Source: Candidatus Jordarchaeales archaeon (GTDB lineage: Archaea > Asgardarchaeota > Jordiarchaeia > Jordiarchaeales > Freyrarchaeaceae). Taken from it: a DNA stretch of 32,000 nucleotides. Under the pieces are notes generated by a model. The model did not search any database, was not told the DNA's origin, and saw nothing but the letters and a program-made list of their open reading frames with translations. The DNA is taken from NCBI GenBank assembly GCA_038889235.1, contig JAWAHN010000001.1, positions 814,852-846,851 on the forward strand. Reading direction: 5' to 3'. Below, in pieces: positions 4,319-31,562 of the stretch (its first letter is position 1; the number at the start of each line of letters is the position of its first letter). Both the position numbers and the translations under genes were made by a program.

Positions 4319-4981
4319 GTGGAACTAAGATTAAGTAAATTGGGATTTGAACCGAAATGCGTGTATGAAGTCATCGTTACAACACTTAACGAGGATAAAA
4401 CGCTCAACGCAGCTCCAATGGGCGTCTTATTGGGGGGAGACGATATCCTAATAATGCAACCGTATATCGCCACAAGAACCTACCACAACATATCTAGGAC
4501 GAGAGAGGCTGTAGTGAATATAACAGACGACATCACACTCTTCTTCACGACAATTTTCGAGAAAGAAAAAGTAAGAGAGTTGCCTGTCTTGAAAGCAAAA
4601 CACGTTTCAGTACCTATTCTAGCTGATTCCAAAGCTTATGTAGAATGTATGGTTGAAGGGGAACCTGTAGTGTATGATGGAAGAGCAAAGGTAACTTTGA
4701 GGGCGCTCGAGTGCGGACTCTTGAGCCAAAATTCTAGGCCCATTTGTAGGGCGTTCAACGTGATTTTAGAGTCGATAATACATTTTACGCGGGTAAAGTA
4801 CTTAGTTGAAAAAGGTGACATAAACGGGGTGATGAAACTGTTGGAGCTGATAACATTTTACAAAGACCTTGTAAAAAGAGTATGTGGTGGAACGCGGTAC
4901 GAAGAAATGATGAATAGAATTTATGAGGAAGCGTACATGAGTGCAAAAGGAATTAAGGGAACCTTGAGTATGTTTCCCTAG
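4319..4981 (+). CDS. DUF447-like protein (FMN-binding split-barrel-like)
   Basis: 220-aa ORF with a GTG start. The N-terminal [21 protein letters not shown] pattern resembles flavin-reductase-like/DUF447 proteins. The assignment is from memory of the family only. Confidence 0.4.
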
Positions 4982-5026
4982 GAAAATACGACTTTAGAGA
5001 TAAAGTAAAGCAGAGGAGGGCAAGTT

Positions 5027-5599
5027 ATGTCGCTTGACGAAAAGACCGCAAAGAGGCTTATCCGGGTACTCCAACAAGTAGAGGATACCACCAAACTTGA
5101 GGGAGTTGCAATAGTAAATAGAGATGGGTTAAGAGTCGCTTGCGCGGAGTCGGCTAAAGTCGATGTCGACACCATTTCAACGGCTTCAGCGGCAATAATA
5201 AACACTAGTGAGACGACCGCCGCGCAGCTGGGGCATGGAAACGTTTCTGAGGTAATAATAAAGGGTGATTCAGGATACCTAATTATAACGAGAGTTGATG
5301 ACCAACATTTCATGGTTGCATCAAGCAGAGACATTATGAGATTAGGGTTAAATCTCGGAATTCTTAAGAGGTACGCGCGATCTATAGCAGAACTTCTCGC
5401 ACAATCAAAGGCTAAAGTAGCAGTACCACAAACGATAATAACACAACCGATTTTGCCTCCTCCAGCAGTTAGTAGAGAAGAAACTGTCAGTGACAAGGAG
5501 GCGATCTTTGAAGCTCTAAGAGCTTTAGGGCTCGAAGACGCAGTTACCGAAGTGCAAGTTCAAAGCAGGAAAGGAGAAGAAAGAACAGAGAGAATATGA
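5027..5599 (+). CDS. Roadblock/LC7 (MglB-like) domain protein with a C-terminal tail
   Basis: 190 aa. LEGVAIVNRDGLRVA...TISTASAAIINTSETTAAQLGHGNVSEVIIKGDSGYLIITRVDD is the typical Roadblock/LC7 pattern. It is followed by a low-complexity Pro/Glu-rich tail of about 70 aa. Confidence 0.65.
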   Translation: MSLDEKTAKRLIRVLQQVEDTTKLEGVAIVNRDGLRVACAESAKVDVDTISTASAAIINTSETTAAQLGHGNVSEVIIKGDSGYLIITRVDDQHFMVASSRDIMRLGLNLGILKRYARSIAELLAQSKAKVAVPQTIITQPILPPPAVSREETVSDKEAIFEALRALGLEDAVTEVQVQSRKGEERTERI

Positions 5600-11719: not shown

Positions 11720-12295
11720 TTATAGGATCTTCCATACGAGTTTATCTCCAACATATTTGCGGTAAACATATATGCCGTCTTGGAAGACTCTTGGATCCTT
11801 TTCTCTGATTTTTGTTGCTTGTTGTATATTTGCAGCGCTTTGCCCCACAGCCTCAATGTCTATACCTGTTAATATTACGTCGTCTTTTTCTACTTTGACA
11901 TTTACTCCTGGAAGAACGTAAGTTTTCCTAGGACTTTTTTCGCCTAGGAAGTTTTCTATGATCACTTCTCTAGACTCTGGAACAAATTTTACACTAATTG
12001 GGAAGTGTGCATAGACAATTTTCATAACATACTTGTAACCTTGCGTCACACCTACGATCATATTCTTAATATGACTTCTCACACTGCCTAGAACAGCCAA
12101 CTGCTTCTTTTTTGGATAATAGGCTTCCAAAACGATTTTATTATCTTCTTTTCTTATGGAAATCCCTCTTGCATGTGAAAAATCCTTTTCCAGCTCACCT
12201 AGAGGGCCCTTGACACGCACTTTCATGCCATCAATGTCCACGTTTACATTGTCAGGAATTTTAACTTCGAGAGCTGCATGGAACGTCTTGACCAT
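11720..12295 (-). CDS. rpl6: 50S ribosomal protein L6 (uL6), inverted relative to the rest of the cluster
   Basis: 191 aa on the minus strand. VKIPDNVNVDIDGMKVRVKGPLGELEKDF...GVTQGYKYVMKIVYAHFPISV...IENFLGEKSPR...GIDIEAVGQSAANI. Confidence 0.93.
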   Translation of the reverse strand: MVKTFHAALEVKIPDNVNVDIDGMKVRVKGPLGELEKDFSHARGISIRKEDNKIVLEAYYPKKKQLAVLGSVRSHIKNMIVGVTQGYKYVMKIVYAHFPISVKFVPESREVIIENFLGEKSPRKTYVLPGVNVKVEKDDVILTGIDIEAVGQSAANIQQATKIREKDPRVFQDGIYVYRKYVGDKLVWKIL

Positions 12296-12347
12296 TGTTT
12301 ACCCTTCCCTCGAATTATTGCTTCAGACTGGATGGAAAATAAGGGGC

Positions 12348-12360
12348 TTTAAATTTATTT
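12348..12360 (-). promoter_or_regulatory. possible own TATA box for the inverted rpl6
   Basis: The minus-sense sequence aaataaatttaaa lies 53-65 nt upstream of the rpl6 ATG, with SD-like gagggaagggt just before the ATG. Confidence 0.25.
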
Positions 12361-12382
12361 CGCAGCAGACTACTTCAAATTA

Positions 12383-12964
12383 TCACTTTTTAATACGTTC
12401 ACTCCACTCCTCAAGCTTGCGCATTAGTTCTTCAGCAGTCTTAATGTCTAATTTCGCTTGCCCGCTCATCCTTAATTGCTTAATGAACTGTGAAATCTCG
12501 TAAAATATTGGACCGTGAACCCTTGATTGCAACTGATCTCTAGCAACCTCCAGCGCATTTGCTATAGCCTCGGCAGGCTGATTTCTTTCGACGAGCTCGA
12601 CAACTTGCGAAAAGGCAGGGGAAAGGCGTACACCGAAACTTTTAACGGTTATCTCCCTTTCAACTGGCAGAGTGGGTTGAACGGGAGCAATCCCTTTTTT
12701 AGCAGAAACGAGTTCTTCAAACCTGCCCCCAGAAAGTTCTTCGAGACGTTTTACCACACTCAAAGCTTCGTCCATTTTCGTGATTAAGACGGACATGCCA
12801 CCAAGCGCTCTGTATATTTCATTCAGCATGCTTCTGAGCTCGTTTAACACCGTTTTTATTTCACCGAATACGCCAAATATCGCTCTTGAAAAGTCGTCGA
12901 GAACTATTTTAACAGCAGATATCTCCTCCAAGACTTTTTCAAATTTCTTATCCATTTCCCCCAA
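12383..12964 (-). CDS. hypothetical alpha-helical protein inserted between rpl6 and rpl32e
   Basis: 193-aa ORF with strong helical/heptad-like composition (EEISAVKIVLDD..., LNELRSMLNEIYRAL, AEELMRKLEEWSERIKK). I recognise no family. Confidence 0.5.
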   Translation of the reverse strand: MGEMDKKFEKVLEEISAVKIVLDDFSRAIFGVFGEIKTVLNELRSMLNEIYRALGGMSVLITKMDEALSVVKRLEELSGGRFEELVSAKKGIAPVQPTLPVEREITVKSFGVRLSPAFSQVVELVERNQPAEAIANALEVARDQLQSRVHGPIFYEISQFIKQLRMSGQAKLDIKTAEELMRKLEEWSERIKK

Positions 12965-13189: not shown

Positions 13190-13849
13190 GTGGTGGGAAA
13201 GACTTTGGTGGAGAAACGACTCTTAATGCTTAGGAAGAGATTGAAAATGAAGAAACCAGACTTTATTAGGTGCGAGAGCTGGAGGTACGTCAGGGTAAAA
13301 CCGAATTGGAGAAGGCCACGTGGAATAGATAATAAAATGAGGGAGAAAGAAAAAGGGTGGCCGAAGTCACCTAATGTAGGATATCGAGCGCCCAGAAAGG
13401 TTAGAGGACTTCACCCATCAGGCTTTAAAGAGGTTATTGTGTGGAGAGCAGAAGATTTAGAAAAGTTGGATCCTAACATTCATGCTATAAGAATTGCTGG
13501 TACTGTAGGTAGGAGAAAAGCTCTTGAAATAATGGATAAGGCTGAAGAAAGGGGCTTTTGGGTTCTTAACCCCAGAATAGTTAGAGAGGAAATTGAAAAA
13601 GAGATCTTAGAAGAAACCATAGAAAAAACAGAAGAAGTTGTCCACGAAGAAGGGACGCGTCTATCCGAAGTCGAGTGGATCGACAAGGAGAGCGCAAAGA
13701 AGTTGGAAGAAGTTGGCGTTTTTACACTTGAAGCGCTCGCCGATGAAGATAATCCAAGGGAGCTTTCTGAAATAACGGGAATAGCTTTAGAGAAACTTGA
13801 GGAATGGATTAAAAGAGCTAGAGAGGAATGTAAGGAGGAAAAGAAATGA
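13190..13849 (+). CDS. rpl32e: 50S ribosomal protein L32e (eL32) with a C-terminal helix-hairpin-helix extension
   Basis: The core is KKPDFIRCESWRYVRVKPNWRRPRGIDNKMR...GYRAPRKVRGLHPSGF...IRIAGTVGRRK. After about aa 135 there is an acidic linker, then LSEVEWIDKESAKKLEEVGVFTLEALADEDNPRELSEITGIALEKLEEWIKRA (HhH-like). Confidence 0.88.
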   Translation: MVGKTLVEKRLLMLRKRLKMKKPDFIRCESWRYVRVKPNWRRPRGIDNKMREKEKGWPKSPNVGYRAPRKVRGLHPSGFKEVIVWRAEDLEKLDPNIHAIRIAGTVGRRKALEIMDKAEERGFWVLNPRIVREEIEKEILEETIEKTEEVVHEEGTRLSEVEWIDKESAKKLEEVGVFTLEALADEDNPRELSEITGIALEKLEEWIKRAREECKEEKK

Positions 13850-20777: not shown

Positions 20778-20815
20778 TACTTAAATAAGAAGTAGTGGTG
20801 GTTGTGTTGCCCAGG

Positions 20816-21852
20816 ATGCTCCCGCCGGAGGGTGTAAAGAGGAAAATTATAGTTAAAAGTGATGACGAAACTAGCGAAGAATATGGTAAGCGCCCTGAAG
20901 AGAGAAGCATTGAAGAGCACTTGAAGGGATGCTTCGTTAACATAGATAAACCAGCAGGACCTACTAGTCACGAAGTCTCTTCTTGGGTTAGGAAAATTTT
21001 GGAGTGCTCGAAAACGGGGCACGCCGGAACACTAGAGCCCCTTCTCAATGAGGGGGGCGGTGAAATCCTAAGGTTACCGGCGTTCTACCAGTGGCTATAG
21101 GTTCGGCTACCAAGCTTGTACAAGCTCTTCACCTTATAGGGAAAGAGTATGTATGCGTTATGAGGTTGCATGGCGATGTTGACCCGGAGAGAGTTCAAAG
21201 CGTCTGTAAGGAGTTTATTGGACCGATTTATCAAAGGCCTCCAATACGTTCCTCTGTGAAGCGGAGGCTTAGGGTGAGACAAATATACTACCTTGATGTG
21301 CTCGAAATTGAGGGGAGAAACGTCTTACTAAAAGTGGGGTGCGAGTCTGGCACGTACATAAGGAAGCTTTGCCACGACATAGGAGAAGTCTTGGGTTGTG
21401 GAGCGCACATGCGTGAGCTTAGGAGAACGCGTAGTGGACCATTTACTGAAGACAATATTGTAACTTTGCACGACTTAAAAGATGCTTACGTTTTCTGGAA
21501 GGAAGAAAAGGACGAGACATATATTAGAAAGGTGTTATTACCCTTGGAGACTGGAGTGCAACACTTACCCAAGTTTTACGTGCGTGACTCAACTGTTGAT
21601 GCCATATGCCATGGAGCAGATTTAGCCATTCCCGGAATTGTCAAAGTTGAAGATGGAGTTGAAAAAGGGGATGTTGTGGCGATTTTGACGCTCAAAGGCG
21701 AACTTGTCGCCCTAGGGACTGCAATGATGACGCTTGAGGAAGTTATGAGGGAGAAAAGAGGTATAGCTGTTAAGACAAAAAGAGTGGTGATGGAGAAGGG
21801 TACGTATCCGAAGCTTTGGAAGAGCAAGAAAGAGTCGAACAAAAGTGGGTGA
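20816..21852 (+). CDS. cbf5: tRNA/rRNA pseudouridine synthase Cbf5 (H/ACA RNP catalytic subunit), interrupted by a 29-nt BHB intron: join(20816..21035,21065..21852)
   Basis: Two ORF-track pieces lie in different frames. The first ends ...KTGHAGTLEPLLNEGGG...* and the second contains (KVTGVLPV)AIGSATKLVQAL.... Splicing gives ...GHAGTLD|PKVTGVLPVAIGSATKLVQ, restoring the TruB/Cbf5 catalytic GTLDP motif. A PUA domain follows at the C-terminus. The product is 335 aa. Confidence 0.9.
21036..21064 (+). other. BHB mRNA intron in cbf5 (29 nt)
   Basis: The central 4-bp helix is cact 21030-21033 paired with ggtg 21059-21062. The 5' bulge is aga at 21034-21036 and the 3' bulge is aaa at 21063-21065. 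The inner helix is gcccc 21037-21041 paired with ggggc 21054-21058. The outer helix is weak, either gga/tcc adjacent or cgccgg 21022-21027 with ccggcg 21077-21082. The boundary is ambiguous by 1 nt with an identical product. Confidence 0.85.
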
Positions 21853-21869: not shown

Positions 21870-21882
21870 AAAAATATAAAAT
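21870..21882 (+). promoter_or_regulatory. TATA-like box for the rpl44e-rps27e-aIF2alpha unit
   Basis: aaaaatataaaat lies about 50 nt upstream of TTG 21932. SD ggaggt lies at 21917-21922. Confidence 0.35.
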
Positions 21883-21931
21883 CGCGCTGAATTTTTCCTT
21901 TCCCAAAAGCGATGCGGAGGTTAGGTGAGGG

Positions 21932-22248
21932 TTGAAGTACCCCAAAGTTAGGCGGACGTATTGCCCACGGTGTAAGAAGCACACGGAACACATGGTTAGC
22001 GTTTACAAGAAAGGAAAAGACCGAGCTTTAGCCGCGGGAGCTAGACGCTACGCTAGGAAGAAGCGAGGTTACGGAAGCCAGCCTAATCCCTCCTACGCTG
22101 CGTAGAGGGGGGTAAACCCGTACAGAGAGAGTTTGCGAAAATAACTAAGAAGGTAAGCTTTAAACTGAAGTGTAAAGAGTGCGGGCACATTCTACACACG
22201 AAGGGCATTCGCCTGAAGAAGGTCGAGGTAGTTGAGAAAGGAGGGTGA
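21932..22248 (+). CDS. rpl44e: 50S ribosomal protein L44e (eL42), interrupted by a 29-nt BHB-like intron: join(21932..22086,22116..22248)
   Basis: Absent from the ORF track, so this is my own translation. Exon 1 from TTG 21932 reads [51 protein letters not shown], and the unspliced frame continues NPSYAA*. Exon 2, in another frame, reads [44 protein letters not shown]. The spliced product is 95 aa, the usual size, with the GYGSQPKPVQ..FAK.TKK consensus spacing. Confidence 0.8.
22087..22115 (+). other. BHB-like mRNA intron in rpl44e (29 nt)
   Basis: The central 4-bp helix is gcct 22081-22084 paired with gggt 22110-22113, with two G.U pairs. The 5' bulge is aat at 22085-22087 and the 3' bulge is aaa at 22114-22116. 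The inner hairpin spans 22088-22109 (ccctc(c)tacg ctg cgtagaggg). The outer helix is not adjacent; the nearest is tacgg 22070-22074 with ccgta 22118-22122. This makes it a relaxed BHB. A taa direct repeat makes the boundary ambiguous by up to 3 nt with an identical product. Confidence 0.7.
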
Positions 22249-30508: not shown

Positions 30509-31562
30509 CCTTCAATCCACGTTACCTGGACTTCATCTAGCCTCCACCTGGGCTTAACGTAGCTCTCTTCGATGCTTAAAGTTCTTCCATAAAGGTACTC
30601 TAATATCCCCGTCCAGGCAATCATGGCTCCATTGTCCCCTGCAAGCTGGTGGGGGACCACGTGAAAGGTGGCATCATGCTCCTCGGCTACCGCCCTGATC
30701 ATCTCCTGCAATCTATTATTCCTACCGACTCCACCAGTTAAGAGCACACTGCTTTTTCGCGTATGAGCCAAAGCTCTCTCAGTAACTTCAGCCAACATTG
30801 AGAAGCAAACTTCTTGTACACTGTAGCATAGGTCTTCGATCTTACAACTACCAATTTTGCCCACCGCGGCGGTGTAGACCCCTGAAAATGAAAGATCCAT
30901 GCCTTTGACGACGTATGGTAGTGGGATAAATGTTTGCCCCCTCCTCGCCAGCTCCTCTATCTTTGGCCCACCTGGATGCTTTAATCCCAAGGCCCTTGCA
31001 AACATGTCCAACATGTTTCCAATTGCTAGGTCTAAGGTCTCACCGAAGACACGGTATTTACCCTTCTCGTAAGCCGCAACTATAGTGTTACCTCCCGACA
31101 CGTAAAGCGTTAATGGGTCATTGACGTTTTCGGTGAGACGGCCTATTTCAATGTGCGCCAGGCAGTGGTTAACCCCAACTAGGGGAACACCTAACAGTAG
31201 CGCCAGTGCTCTAGCTGCCGTCGCCACAGTTCTTAGGCAGGGGCCTTTGGAGGCTTCGCTAACCCCGGCCCCTGGGAGAACGCGACAAGCCCTATTTCTT
31301 TTATATTAATGCCCGCTGTCTCTATAGCGGAAGCTATCACTTGTTTAACGACATTGGAATGGTGTTGCGCAGCCTCTCTGGGGTGGATTCCCCCTTCCAA
31401 GGGGACGTATTCGTCTTTAACGTTCGCTAATATCTCTCCTTCACTGCTTACTATGCCTACACCTAGCGTGTGAGCTGTTCCCTCGATGCCGACGCACAAT
31501 AGGCGGCGGGAGCCTAGTAACTCCCTGACTTTTTTCAGAGTAACGTTGTTATTCGCTTTCAT
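30505..31562 (-). CDS. kae1: tRNA N6-adenosine threonylcarbamoyltransferase Kae1 (KEOPS catalytic subunit), interrupted by a 14-nt BHB intron: complement(join(30505..31246,31261..31562))
   Basis: Two ORF-track pieces lie in different frames: ...[16 protein letters not shown]...HPREAAQHH...[17 protein letters not shown] and (V)[28 protein letters not shown]...GDNGAMIAW.... The splice gives FSQGPGL|[15 protein letters not shown], the canonical Kae1/TsaD motif, and a 347-aa product. The true start may be the internal TTG just before CVGIEGTA. Confidence 0.85.
31247..31260 (-). other. BHB mini-intron in kae1 (14 nt, sense agcgaagcctccaa)
   Basis: The sense strand reads aggggcc|gggg|tta|gcgaagc|ctcc|aaa|ggcccct. 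The outer 7-bp helix is 31273-31267 with 31245-31239. The central 4-bp helix is 31266-31263 with 31252-31249, with one G.U. The two 3-nt bulges are 31262-31260 and 31248-31246. The inner element is a gc(gaa)gc mini-hairpin. The boundary is ambiguous by 1 nt with an identical product. Confidence 0.8.

Follow-up and report, generated by a model that had tools for sequence, protein, structure and literature searches.

The rpl44e gene, which encodes ribosomal protein eL42 (L44e), is located downstream of cbf5 on the plus strand of the window (i.e. the whole stretch of 32 000 nt analysed here, from an Asgard archaeon of Candidatus Jordarchaeales). The open reading frame beginning at TTG 21932 was translated from the window. 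It reads MKYPKV...GYGSQP, continues as NPSYAA and ends at the TAG codon 22103-22105. The remainder of the protein, down to EKGG and the stop codon, is read in the +2 frame at 22114-22248. This arrangement of rpl44e in two frames had been described in a sequence-only reading of the same DNA, and its coordinates held on re-reading. The TTG start is at a position consistent with the ATG or GTG starts of orthologues. The features of rpl44e and of two further interrupted genes of the window are collected in Table 1.

Table 1. Coordinates of rpl44e, its predicted intron and the two further predicted introns of the window. A slash marks a predicted cut.
Feature	Position	Strand	Remarks
rpl44e exon 1	21932-22086	+	TTG start; through GYGSQP and the first 2 bases of the Lys codon; first CxxC of the zinc ribbon
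rpl44e exon 2	22116-22248	+	from the last base of the Lys codon to EKGG, stop 22246-22248; second CxxC
Predicted rpl44e BHB (HBh'-type) intron, 29 nt	22087-22115	+	removal restores full-length L44e; same-site inserts in orthologues; empty-site junction
BHB central helix H, 5' strand, gcct (exonic)	22081-22084	+	pairs with 22110-22113
BHB central helix H', 3' strand, gggt (intronic)	22110-22113	+	pairs with 22081-22084
5' three-nt bulge, aa/t	22085-22087	+	predicted cut after 22086; AAW in all orthologues
3' three-nt bulge, aa/a	22114-22116	+	predicted cut after 22115; no closing outer helix
Inner helix h'	22088-22109	+	9-bp hairpin, one bulged C, CUG loop
In-frame TAG within the intron	22103-22105	+	would end translation of unspliced rpl44e mRNA at 57 aa
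Candidate TATA-box-like A/T-rich element (aaaatataaaat)	21871-21882	+	in the 79-nt cbf5-rpl44e spacer; by eye
Candidate Shine-Dalgarno-like GGAGGT	21916-21921	+	10 nt upstream of the TTG start; by eye
Predicted cbf5 intron, 29 nt, HBh'	21036-21064, in cbf5 20795-21852	+	CACT AG/A gccccttctcaatgaggggggc GGTG AA/A
Predicted kae1 intron, 14 nt	31260-31247, in kae1 31562-30505	-	complete canonical hBHBh' motif, by eye

Exon 1 alone matched positions 1-40 of the Pfam family PF00935 (Ribosomal_L44) and exon 2 alone matched positions 37-76. Removal of the 29 nt at 22087-22115 gives a product of 95 aa with the junction GYGSQP/KPVQ. This product was aligned to positions 1-76 of 76 in PF00935 (E 2.7e-29), to positions 1-92 of 92 in the NCBIfam L44e equivalog NF004425, in one stretch, and to positions 1-92 of 92 in the L44e chain of a solved archaeal ribosome (8hku), with no gap. 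The same excision, giving the same junction and a protein of 95 aa, had been proposed in the sequence-only reading, and the gapless alignments to the L44e profiles and to 8hku agree with it. The sequence predicted at the junction, GYGSQPKPVQ, is contiguous in intron-less Asgard L44e proteins. The predicted joined mRNA reads ...CAG CCU AAA CCC..., and the join of 22086 to 22116 gives CAGCCUAA/ACCCGUA.

The insert was then compared with the BHB motif, which is defined by two 3-nt bulges separated by a 4-bp helix and of which hBH and HBh' are relaxed forms (PMC6379350). A 4-bp helix with opposite 3-nt bulges is present at the rpl44e insert. The pairs of helix H (22081-84 with 22110-13) are G-U, C-G, C-G and U-G. 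According to the rule that cuts fall after the second base of each bulge, the intron is 22087-22115, and 22085-22113 is equivalent. Cutting after the second bulge bases and joining the ends yields the full-length L44e product, and the homologous rpl44e introns keep the structure rather than the sequence. Of the two flanking helices of a strict hBHBh' motif, the inner one is present and the outer, exon-exon one is absent, since a22080 faces c22117; the same is found in all orthologues. Because there is no adjacent exon-exon helix, the rpl44e motif is a relaxed HBh' motif, a recognized variant, and the 3' cut site therefore lies outside a closed bulge. All the elements drawn earlier for this site (the gcct/gggt helix, the aat and aaa bulges, the hairpin at 22088-22109 and the cut positions) were reproduced, as was the description of the motif as relaxed.

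The energy of the whole rpl44e motif is -14.6 kcal/mol. In the window sequence, a slipped hairpin using two G's of H' is the MFE structure. It is more stable than the BHB fold by 1.1-1.3 kcal/mol, and helix H has a pair probability of about 0.2. The z-score of the whole-region fold was insignificant (-0.71). A scan of the window for loose BHB motifs (4 bp plus at least 5 bp, G-U allowed) gave 485 hits on the plus strand and 460 on the minus strand, i.e. about 1.4e-4 per position pair. Such a generic scan was discarded as evidence because ORF-joining candidates were as frequent in reversed-sequence controls as in the real strands. A loose BHB motif by itself proves nothing. The probability that a motif coincides with one to three frame-restoring registers, estimated from the hit density in the window, is about 1e-4 to 4e-4, and this coincidence is repeated in nine further distinct orthologous sequences. 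A self-splicing group I or group II intron was rejected, since the insert has 29 nt and the ribozyme core of such introns has hundreds, and since Rfam gave no match in the rpl44e region or elsewhere in the window.

Orthologous loci were taken from the contigs of homologues, from one genome scan and from one metagenome pattern scan, in which all seven matches were rpl44e. The 21 loci represent 10 distinct intron-bearing sequences (the window, L001, L005-L008, L010, L013, L019 and L020), and every insert is located at the identical codon boundary. Full-length L44e proteins in the homologue search were at most 72% identical to the window product. The same search returned six short gene calls of 56-86 aa (56-58, once 86), all breaking directly after GYGSQP. 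When the ten predicted spliced proteins were looked up as exact sequences in a collection of about 15 billion proteins, none was found; no annotator has therefore joined the rpl44e exons. The closest genome locus, that of the Candidatus Jordarchaeia MAG QC4 (eIF2-alpha 82% identical), has the same 29-nt intron.

The length of the insert is 29 nt in the window, the L001 group and L013, 33 nt in L005, L006, L007, L010, L019 and L020, and 34 nt in L008. The sequences with 33- or 34-nt inserts bear names such as Jordarchaeaceae, Jordarchaeum and Freyarchaeota, and one of them is labelled both Freyarchaeota and Jordarchaeia. As a consequence of these lengths, exon 2 is in frame +2, 0 and +1, respectively. 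The frame-0 inserts contain one or two stops (TAG alone, TAA and TAG, or TGA and TAG), with all three stop codons occurring among them. Given the differing frames and stops, no single frameshift or read-through rule fits the orthologues, whereas excision at the RNA level fits all of them.

Translational recoding would leave the insert in the mRNA and let the ribosome deal with it by a programmed frameshift, by read-through or recoding of the stop, or by a bypass similar to that of gene 60, from the AAW codon to the downstream AAA. We consider it very unlikely. A programmed frameshift or bypass site was rejected because the frame change is not constant among orthologues. The 33/34-nt inserts begin with AAA and precede AAA, a possible pair of take-off and landing codons, but the would-be take-off codon of the window group is AAT (Asn) and not AAA. 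Jordarchaeia do recode UGA as selenocysteine, but pyrrolysine recoding is absent from them (PMC9723677). Read-through of the in-frame inserts would add 11 residues to a loop in which no homologue has an indel. A hairpin is indeed located within the gap; the inserts of cbf5 and kae1 have the same kind of RNA geometry, however, and have no matched codons.

Excision of an RNA structure is also what the comparison of the ten sequences points to. The pattern gcc[tc]-AA[AT]-C...stem...G-GGG[TC]-AAA is common to all ten, with unrelated loops. When the BHB structure was placed on the ten-sequence alignment, 89.8% of the cells were paired, against 37-52% when the 3' partners were slid. Helix H is paired in 100% of cases and includes changes between GU and GC and between UG and CG. 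In the inner helix h', four pairs are altered on both sides across orthologues. The covariation score was 0.216, against 0.165 for shuffles, and was reached by none of 500 shuffles; it is based on 10 sequences from perhaps 3-5 lineages, in an alignment picked with the structure in mind. At both 37 and 70 °C, the BHB fold is the MFE structure or lies within 0.5 kcal/mol of it in nine of the ten sequences.

Alleles of rpl44e with an empty site were also found. The full-length L44e protein P0003 shares 93% identity with the spliced products predicted for L006 and L020. Another member of its 90% cluster is the annotated L44e of Candidatus Freyarchaeum deiterrae, whose gene is on a 3.58-Mb contig; the genome of this organism is reported to be complete (PMC11291895). 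The corresponding DNA, L025, has no insert and shares 90-93% identity with the L006 and L020 exons. It reads CAGCCT/AAGCCAATACAG, which is exactly the predicted exon junction (CAGCCT/AAGCCA). The Lys codon at the junction is AAG in the intron-less DNA and AAA in the predicted joined rpl44e mRNA of the window. Altogether, seven distinct intron-less L44e alleles were identified (P0003, with its DNA at L025 419-694, and P0125-P0130), including that of Candidatus Freyarchaeum deiterrae. In a neighbour-joining tree, which is weak because the protein is short, they nest within the 33-nt clade. This position suggests that the intron was lost precisely in a Freyarchaeum deiterrae-like clade. The rpl44e intron seems to go back far in the history of the class Jordarchaeia (= Freyarchaeia). 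Comparison with the rpl44e genes of relatives had been named beforehand as a check on the proposed excision; both the same-site inserts of the ten sequences and the intron-less allele with the predicted junction speak for it.

Selection was estimated from the window, L001 and L013, between which synonymous sites have reached saturation. The dN is 0.04-0.08 in both exons (0.03-0.09 in exon 2); where dS could be computed, dN/dS is 0.02-0.14. The introns of the three sequences differ at 5-7 of 29 positions. Judged from these values, purifying selection acts on both exons and on the intron; it is strong on the frame-shifted exon 2, and the rpl44e intron is more conserved than synonymous sites. Such a constraint on the intron is expected if a cleavable structure must be kept. 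Both observations count against a pseudogene or a sequencing or assembly error, i.e. against the idea that rpl44e is broken or that the 29 nt are artefactual, which we regard as extremely unlikely. Gene callers do give only a truncated product (56-58 aa, once 86 aa) and MAGs may contain indel errors, but the same interruption is present in independent assemblies from JGI, ENA, NCBI and Logan. Moreover, eL42 is a universal ribosomal protein of archaea and eukaryotes, and among the homologues no intact copy could be attributed to the intron-bearing Jordarchaeales genomes, the best full-length match being 72% identical. Separate translation of exon 1 and exon 2, with assembly of the two peptides in the ribosome, is hardly credible either: split protein genes exist in some archaea (e.g. 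Nanoarchaeum), but in eight of the ten orthologues no ATG, GTG or TTG occurs from the last in-frame stop before exon 2 up to its 20th codon, the open stretch upstream of exon 2 is just 3-9 codons long in nine of the ten (23 codons in L001), the four zinc-ribbon cysteines are divided 2 + 2 between the exons, and the conserved BHB geometry would be left unexplained.

Three of the approximately 40 genes in the window are interrupted, namely cbf5, rpl44e and kae1. Unspliced cbf5 is read as two ORFs (20795-21100 and 21091-21852). In the scan, a splice at 21035/21065 restored the catalytic GTLDP motif, as GTLDPKVTG. In the relative L001, an intron occupies the identical site in cbf5 (L001 2034-2060), but it has 27 nt and an 8-bp hairpin of its own. 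The kae1 gene (TsaD/Kae1 family) is located upstream of a Bud32-like kinase gene, and its Pfam match is in halves. Its outer helix is made of 6 bp (ggggcc 31272-67 with ggcccc 31245-40) and its helix H of gggg 31266-63 with ctcc 31252-49; the bulges are tt/a and aa/a. The predicted junction of the window copy, read by eye, begins FSQGPGL/. The sequence-only reading had attributed one geometry and the same cut positions to the three genes. This stands for cbf5, which has a 29-nt HBh' motif, and the cut rule is common to all three, whereas the kae1 motif (hBHBh', 14 nt) has another geometry. The 3' bulge is AAA in all three window introns (21036-21064, 22087-22115 and 31247-31260). The cbf5 and rpl44e introns both have exactly 29 nt and a 22-nt C-rich/G-rich hairpin. 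A search of the window with a covariance model built on the rpl44e intron gave no second copy and missed the cbf5 intron as well; the window introns are therefore not copies of one element and do not form a repeated or mobile family.

Other observations were made in the window. The uL6 gene is full-length (NCBIfam equivalog, 236 bits) and lies on the minus strand (11720-12295), with the surrounding spc-type cluster (S8 ... L32e) on the plus strand. It is adjoined by a minus-strand ORF of 193 aa (12383-12964) with no Pfam or NCBIfam match, and the only repeat found nearby is a weak 18-nt inverted repeat (11514-31 and 12571-88). A local inversion may account for the minus-strand region 11720-12964, or else a fault of the assembly. 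The L32e ORF (13190-13849, plus strand, 219 aa) has a C-terminal HHH_5 helix-hairpin-helix domain (residues 158-212) after Ribosomal_L32e; this ORF either is a fusion of an unusual kind or runs on into a neighbouring gene. Two ORFs overlap near the start of the window: one of 172 aa on the minus strand (4978-5496), with no Pfam or NCBIfam match, and one of 190 aa on the plus strand (5027-5599). No tRNA genes were detected by ARAGORN in the window or in 14 related loci.

Taken together, the rpl44e (eL42) gene of this Jordarchaeales archaeon is very probably interrupted by a 29-nt pre-mRNA intron with a relaxed HBh' BHB motif. Cutting and joining in the cell, and the enzymes involved, are predicted in the following model. 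During folding of the pre-mRNA, the four bases GCCU at the end of exon 1 would pair with GGGU at the 3' end of the intron. The stable intron hairpin would stack on this helix and leave a 3-nt bulge on each strand. The tRNA-splicing endonuclease EndA would then cut behind the second base of both bulges (after 22086 and 22115), and an RtcB-type ligase would join the exons into the mRNA of the 95-aa zinc-ribbon protein. An unspliced rpl44e mRNA would give only a fragment of 57 aa, ending at the intronic TAG. A crenarchaeote was discarded as host, the organism being an Asgard archaeon; two proteins encoded in the window are identical to proteins of Candidatus Jordarchaeales archaeon MAGs. The Asgard genomes of Odin, Loki, Thor and Heimdall are reported to encode an (alpha-beta)2 EndA with an L1 loop and a broad specificity, which accepts relaxed motifs (PMC5829648). 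In Freyarchaeia, 92-95% of tRNA genes have introns, many of them at non-canonical positions (PMC11291895). Such abundant non-canonical tRNA introns would imply that a broad-specificity endonuclease is also present in this class.

To the BHB introns of archaeal mRNAs, the rpl44e case adds a conserved one in the gene of a universal ribosomal protein, in an Asgard lineage. This intron neighbours two further interrupted informational genes, cbf5 and kae1, and displays a clean presence/absence polymorphism among close relatives. The ribosomal host gene, the Asgard host, the two neighbouring cases and the polymorphism suggest together that archaea make wider use of protein-only mRNA splicing than has been assumed. 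It is possible, though we would stop short of calling it probable, that Jordarchaeia splice many protein-coding transcripts with the tRNA-splicing machinery and that closely related lineages gain these mRNA introns and lose them precisely. Were this general, routine pre-mRNA splicing on a genome-wide scale would be known for the first time in a prokaryotic lineage, one that belongs to the closest relatives of eukaryotes. The gain and loss of introns can now be tested directly in the sister group of eukaryotes. The rpl44e intron might also couple the output of a ribosomal protein to EndA/RtcB activity. In addition, because gene callers truncate or drop interrupted genes, Jordarchaeia MAGs are scored wrongly for L44e, which is commonly used as a marker in phylogenomics and for completeness.

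The literature was searched in full text for comparable cases. No intron in rpl44e or in another archaeal ribosomal protein gene and no Asgard mRNA intron was found in this search, which is not proof for all literature. The sequence-only reading had stated that it knew of no intron in an archaeal ribosomal protein gene, and the search agrees: the crenarchaeal cbf5 intron was the only confirmed archaeal pre-mRNA BHB intron found, since 2002. According to a 2009 paper (PMC2738675), introns in protein genes other than cbf5 were predictions only, and the Freyarchaeia genome paper reports tRNA introns only (PMC11291895).

The closest known system is the cbf5 intron of Crenarchaeota (Watanabe 2002; Yoshinari 2006; Yokobori 2009, PMC2738675). 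It is similar to the rpl44e intron in its cleavage motif, which is often relaxed in cbf5, in its removal, attributed to the hetero-oligomeric splicing endonuclease, in its gain and loss among relatives and in the mis-annotation of unspliced copies as frameshifts. It differs in its host gene, a pseudouridine synthase gene instead of the gene of ribosomal protein eL42/L44e, and in its host lineage, Desulfurococcales and Sulfolobales instead of the Asgard Jordarchaeia, where splicing is predicted from the sequence. An assignment of the rpl44e intron to the crenarchaeal cbf5 type was rejected on the basis of the gene and of the organism. The non-canonical BHB introns of tRNAs (Thermoproteales; Atabeyarchaeia and Freyarchaeia, PMC11291895) have the same grammar of H, 3-nt bulges and h', the same size range and presumably the same enzymes, and extreme intron-richness was reported in the very class to which the rpl44e host belongs. 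In contrast to them, the rpl44e intron is embedded in an mRNA reading frame and not in a tRNA body; it must therefore preserve the frame and the junction codons.

Two more distant systems can be compared. HAC1/XBP1 splicing takes place in the cytoplasm, with cleavage by Ire1 and ligation by tRNA ligase or RtcB. Like the event predicted for rpl44e, it is a protein-only, spliceosome-independent loss of a short mRNA segment bounded by stem-loops, with tRNA-type ligation and a change of frame. Unlike it, HAC1/XBP1 splicing relies on Ire1 and another recognition motif and is regulatory, stress-induced and eukaryotic. In phage T4 gene 60, the ribosome skips a gap rather than the RNA losing a segment. 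The likeness lies in a short non-coding hairpin gap inside a coding sequence, with similar flanking codons. The rpl44e gene of the window differs from gene 60 in that it has no matched take-off and landing codons and in that its geometry fits an endonuclease motif, as do the unrelated inserts of cbf5 and kae1. The mechanism proposed for rpl44e is thus of a known kind, and its host gene and its lineage are new.
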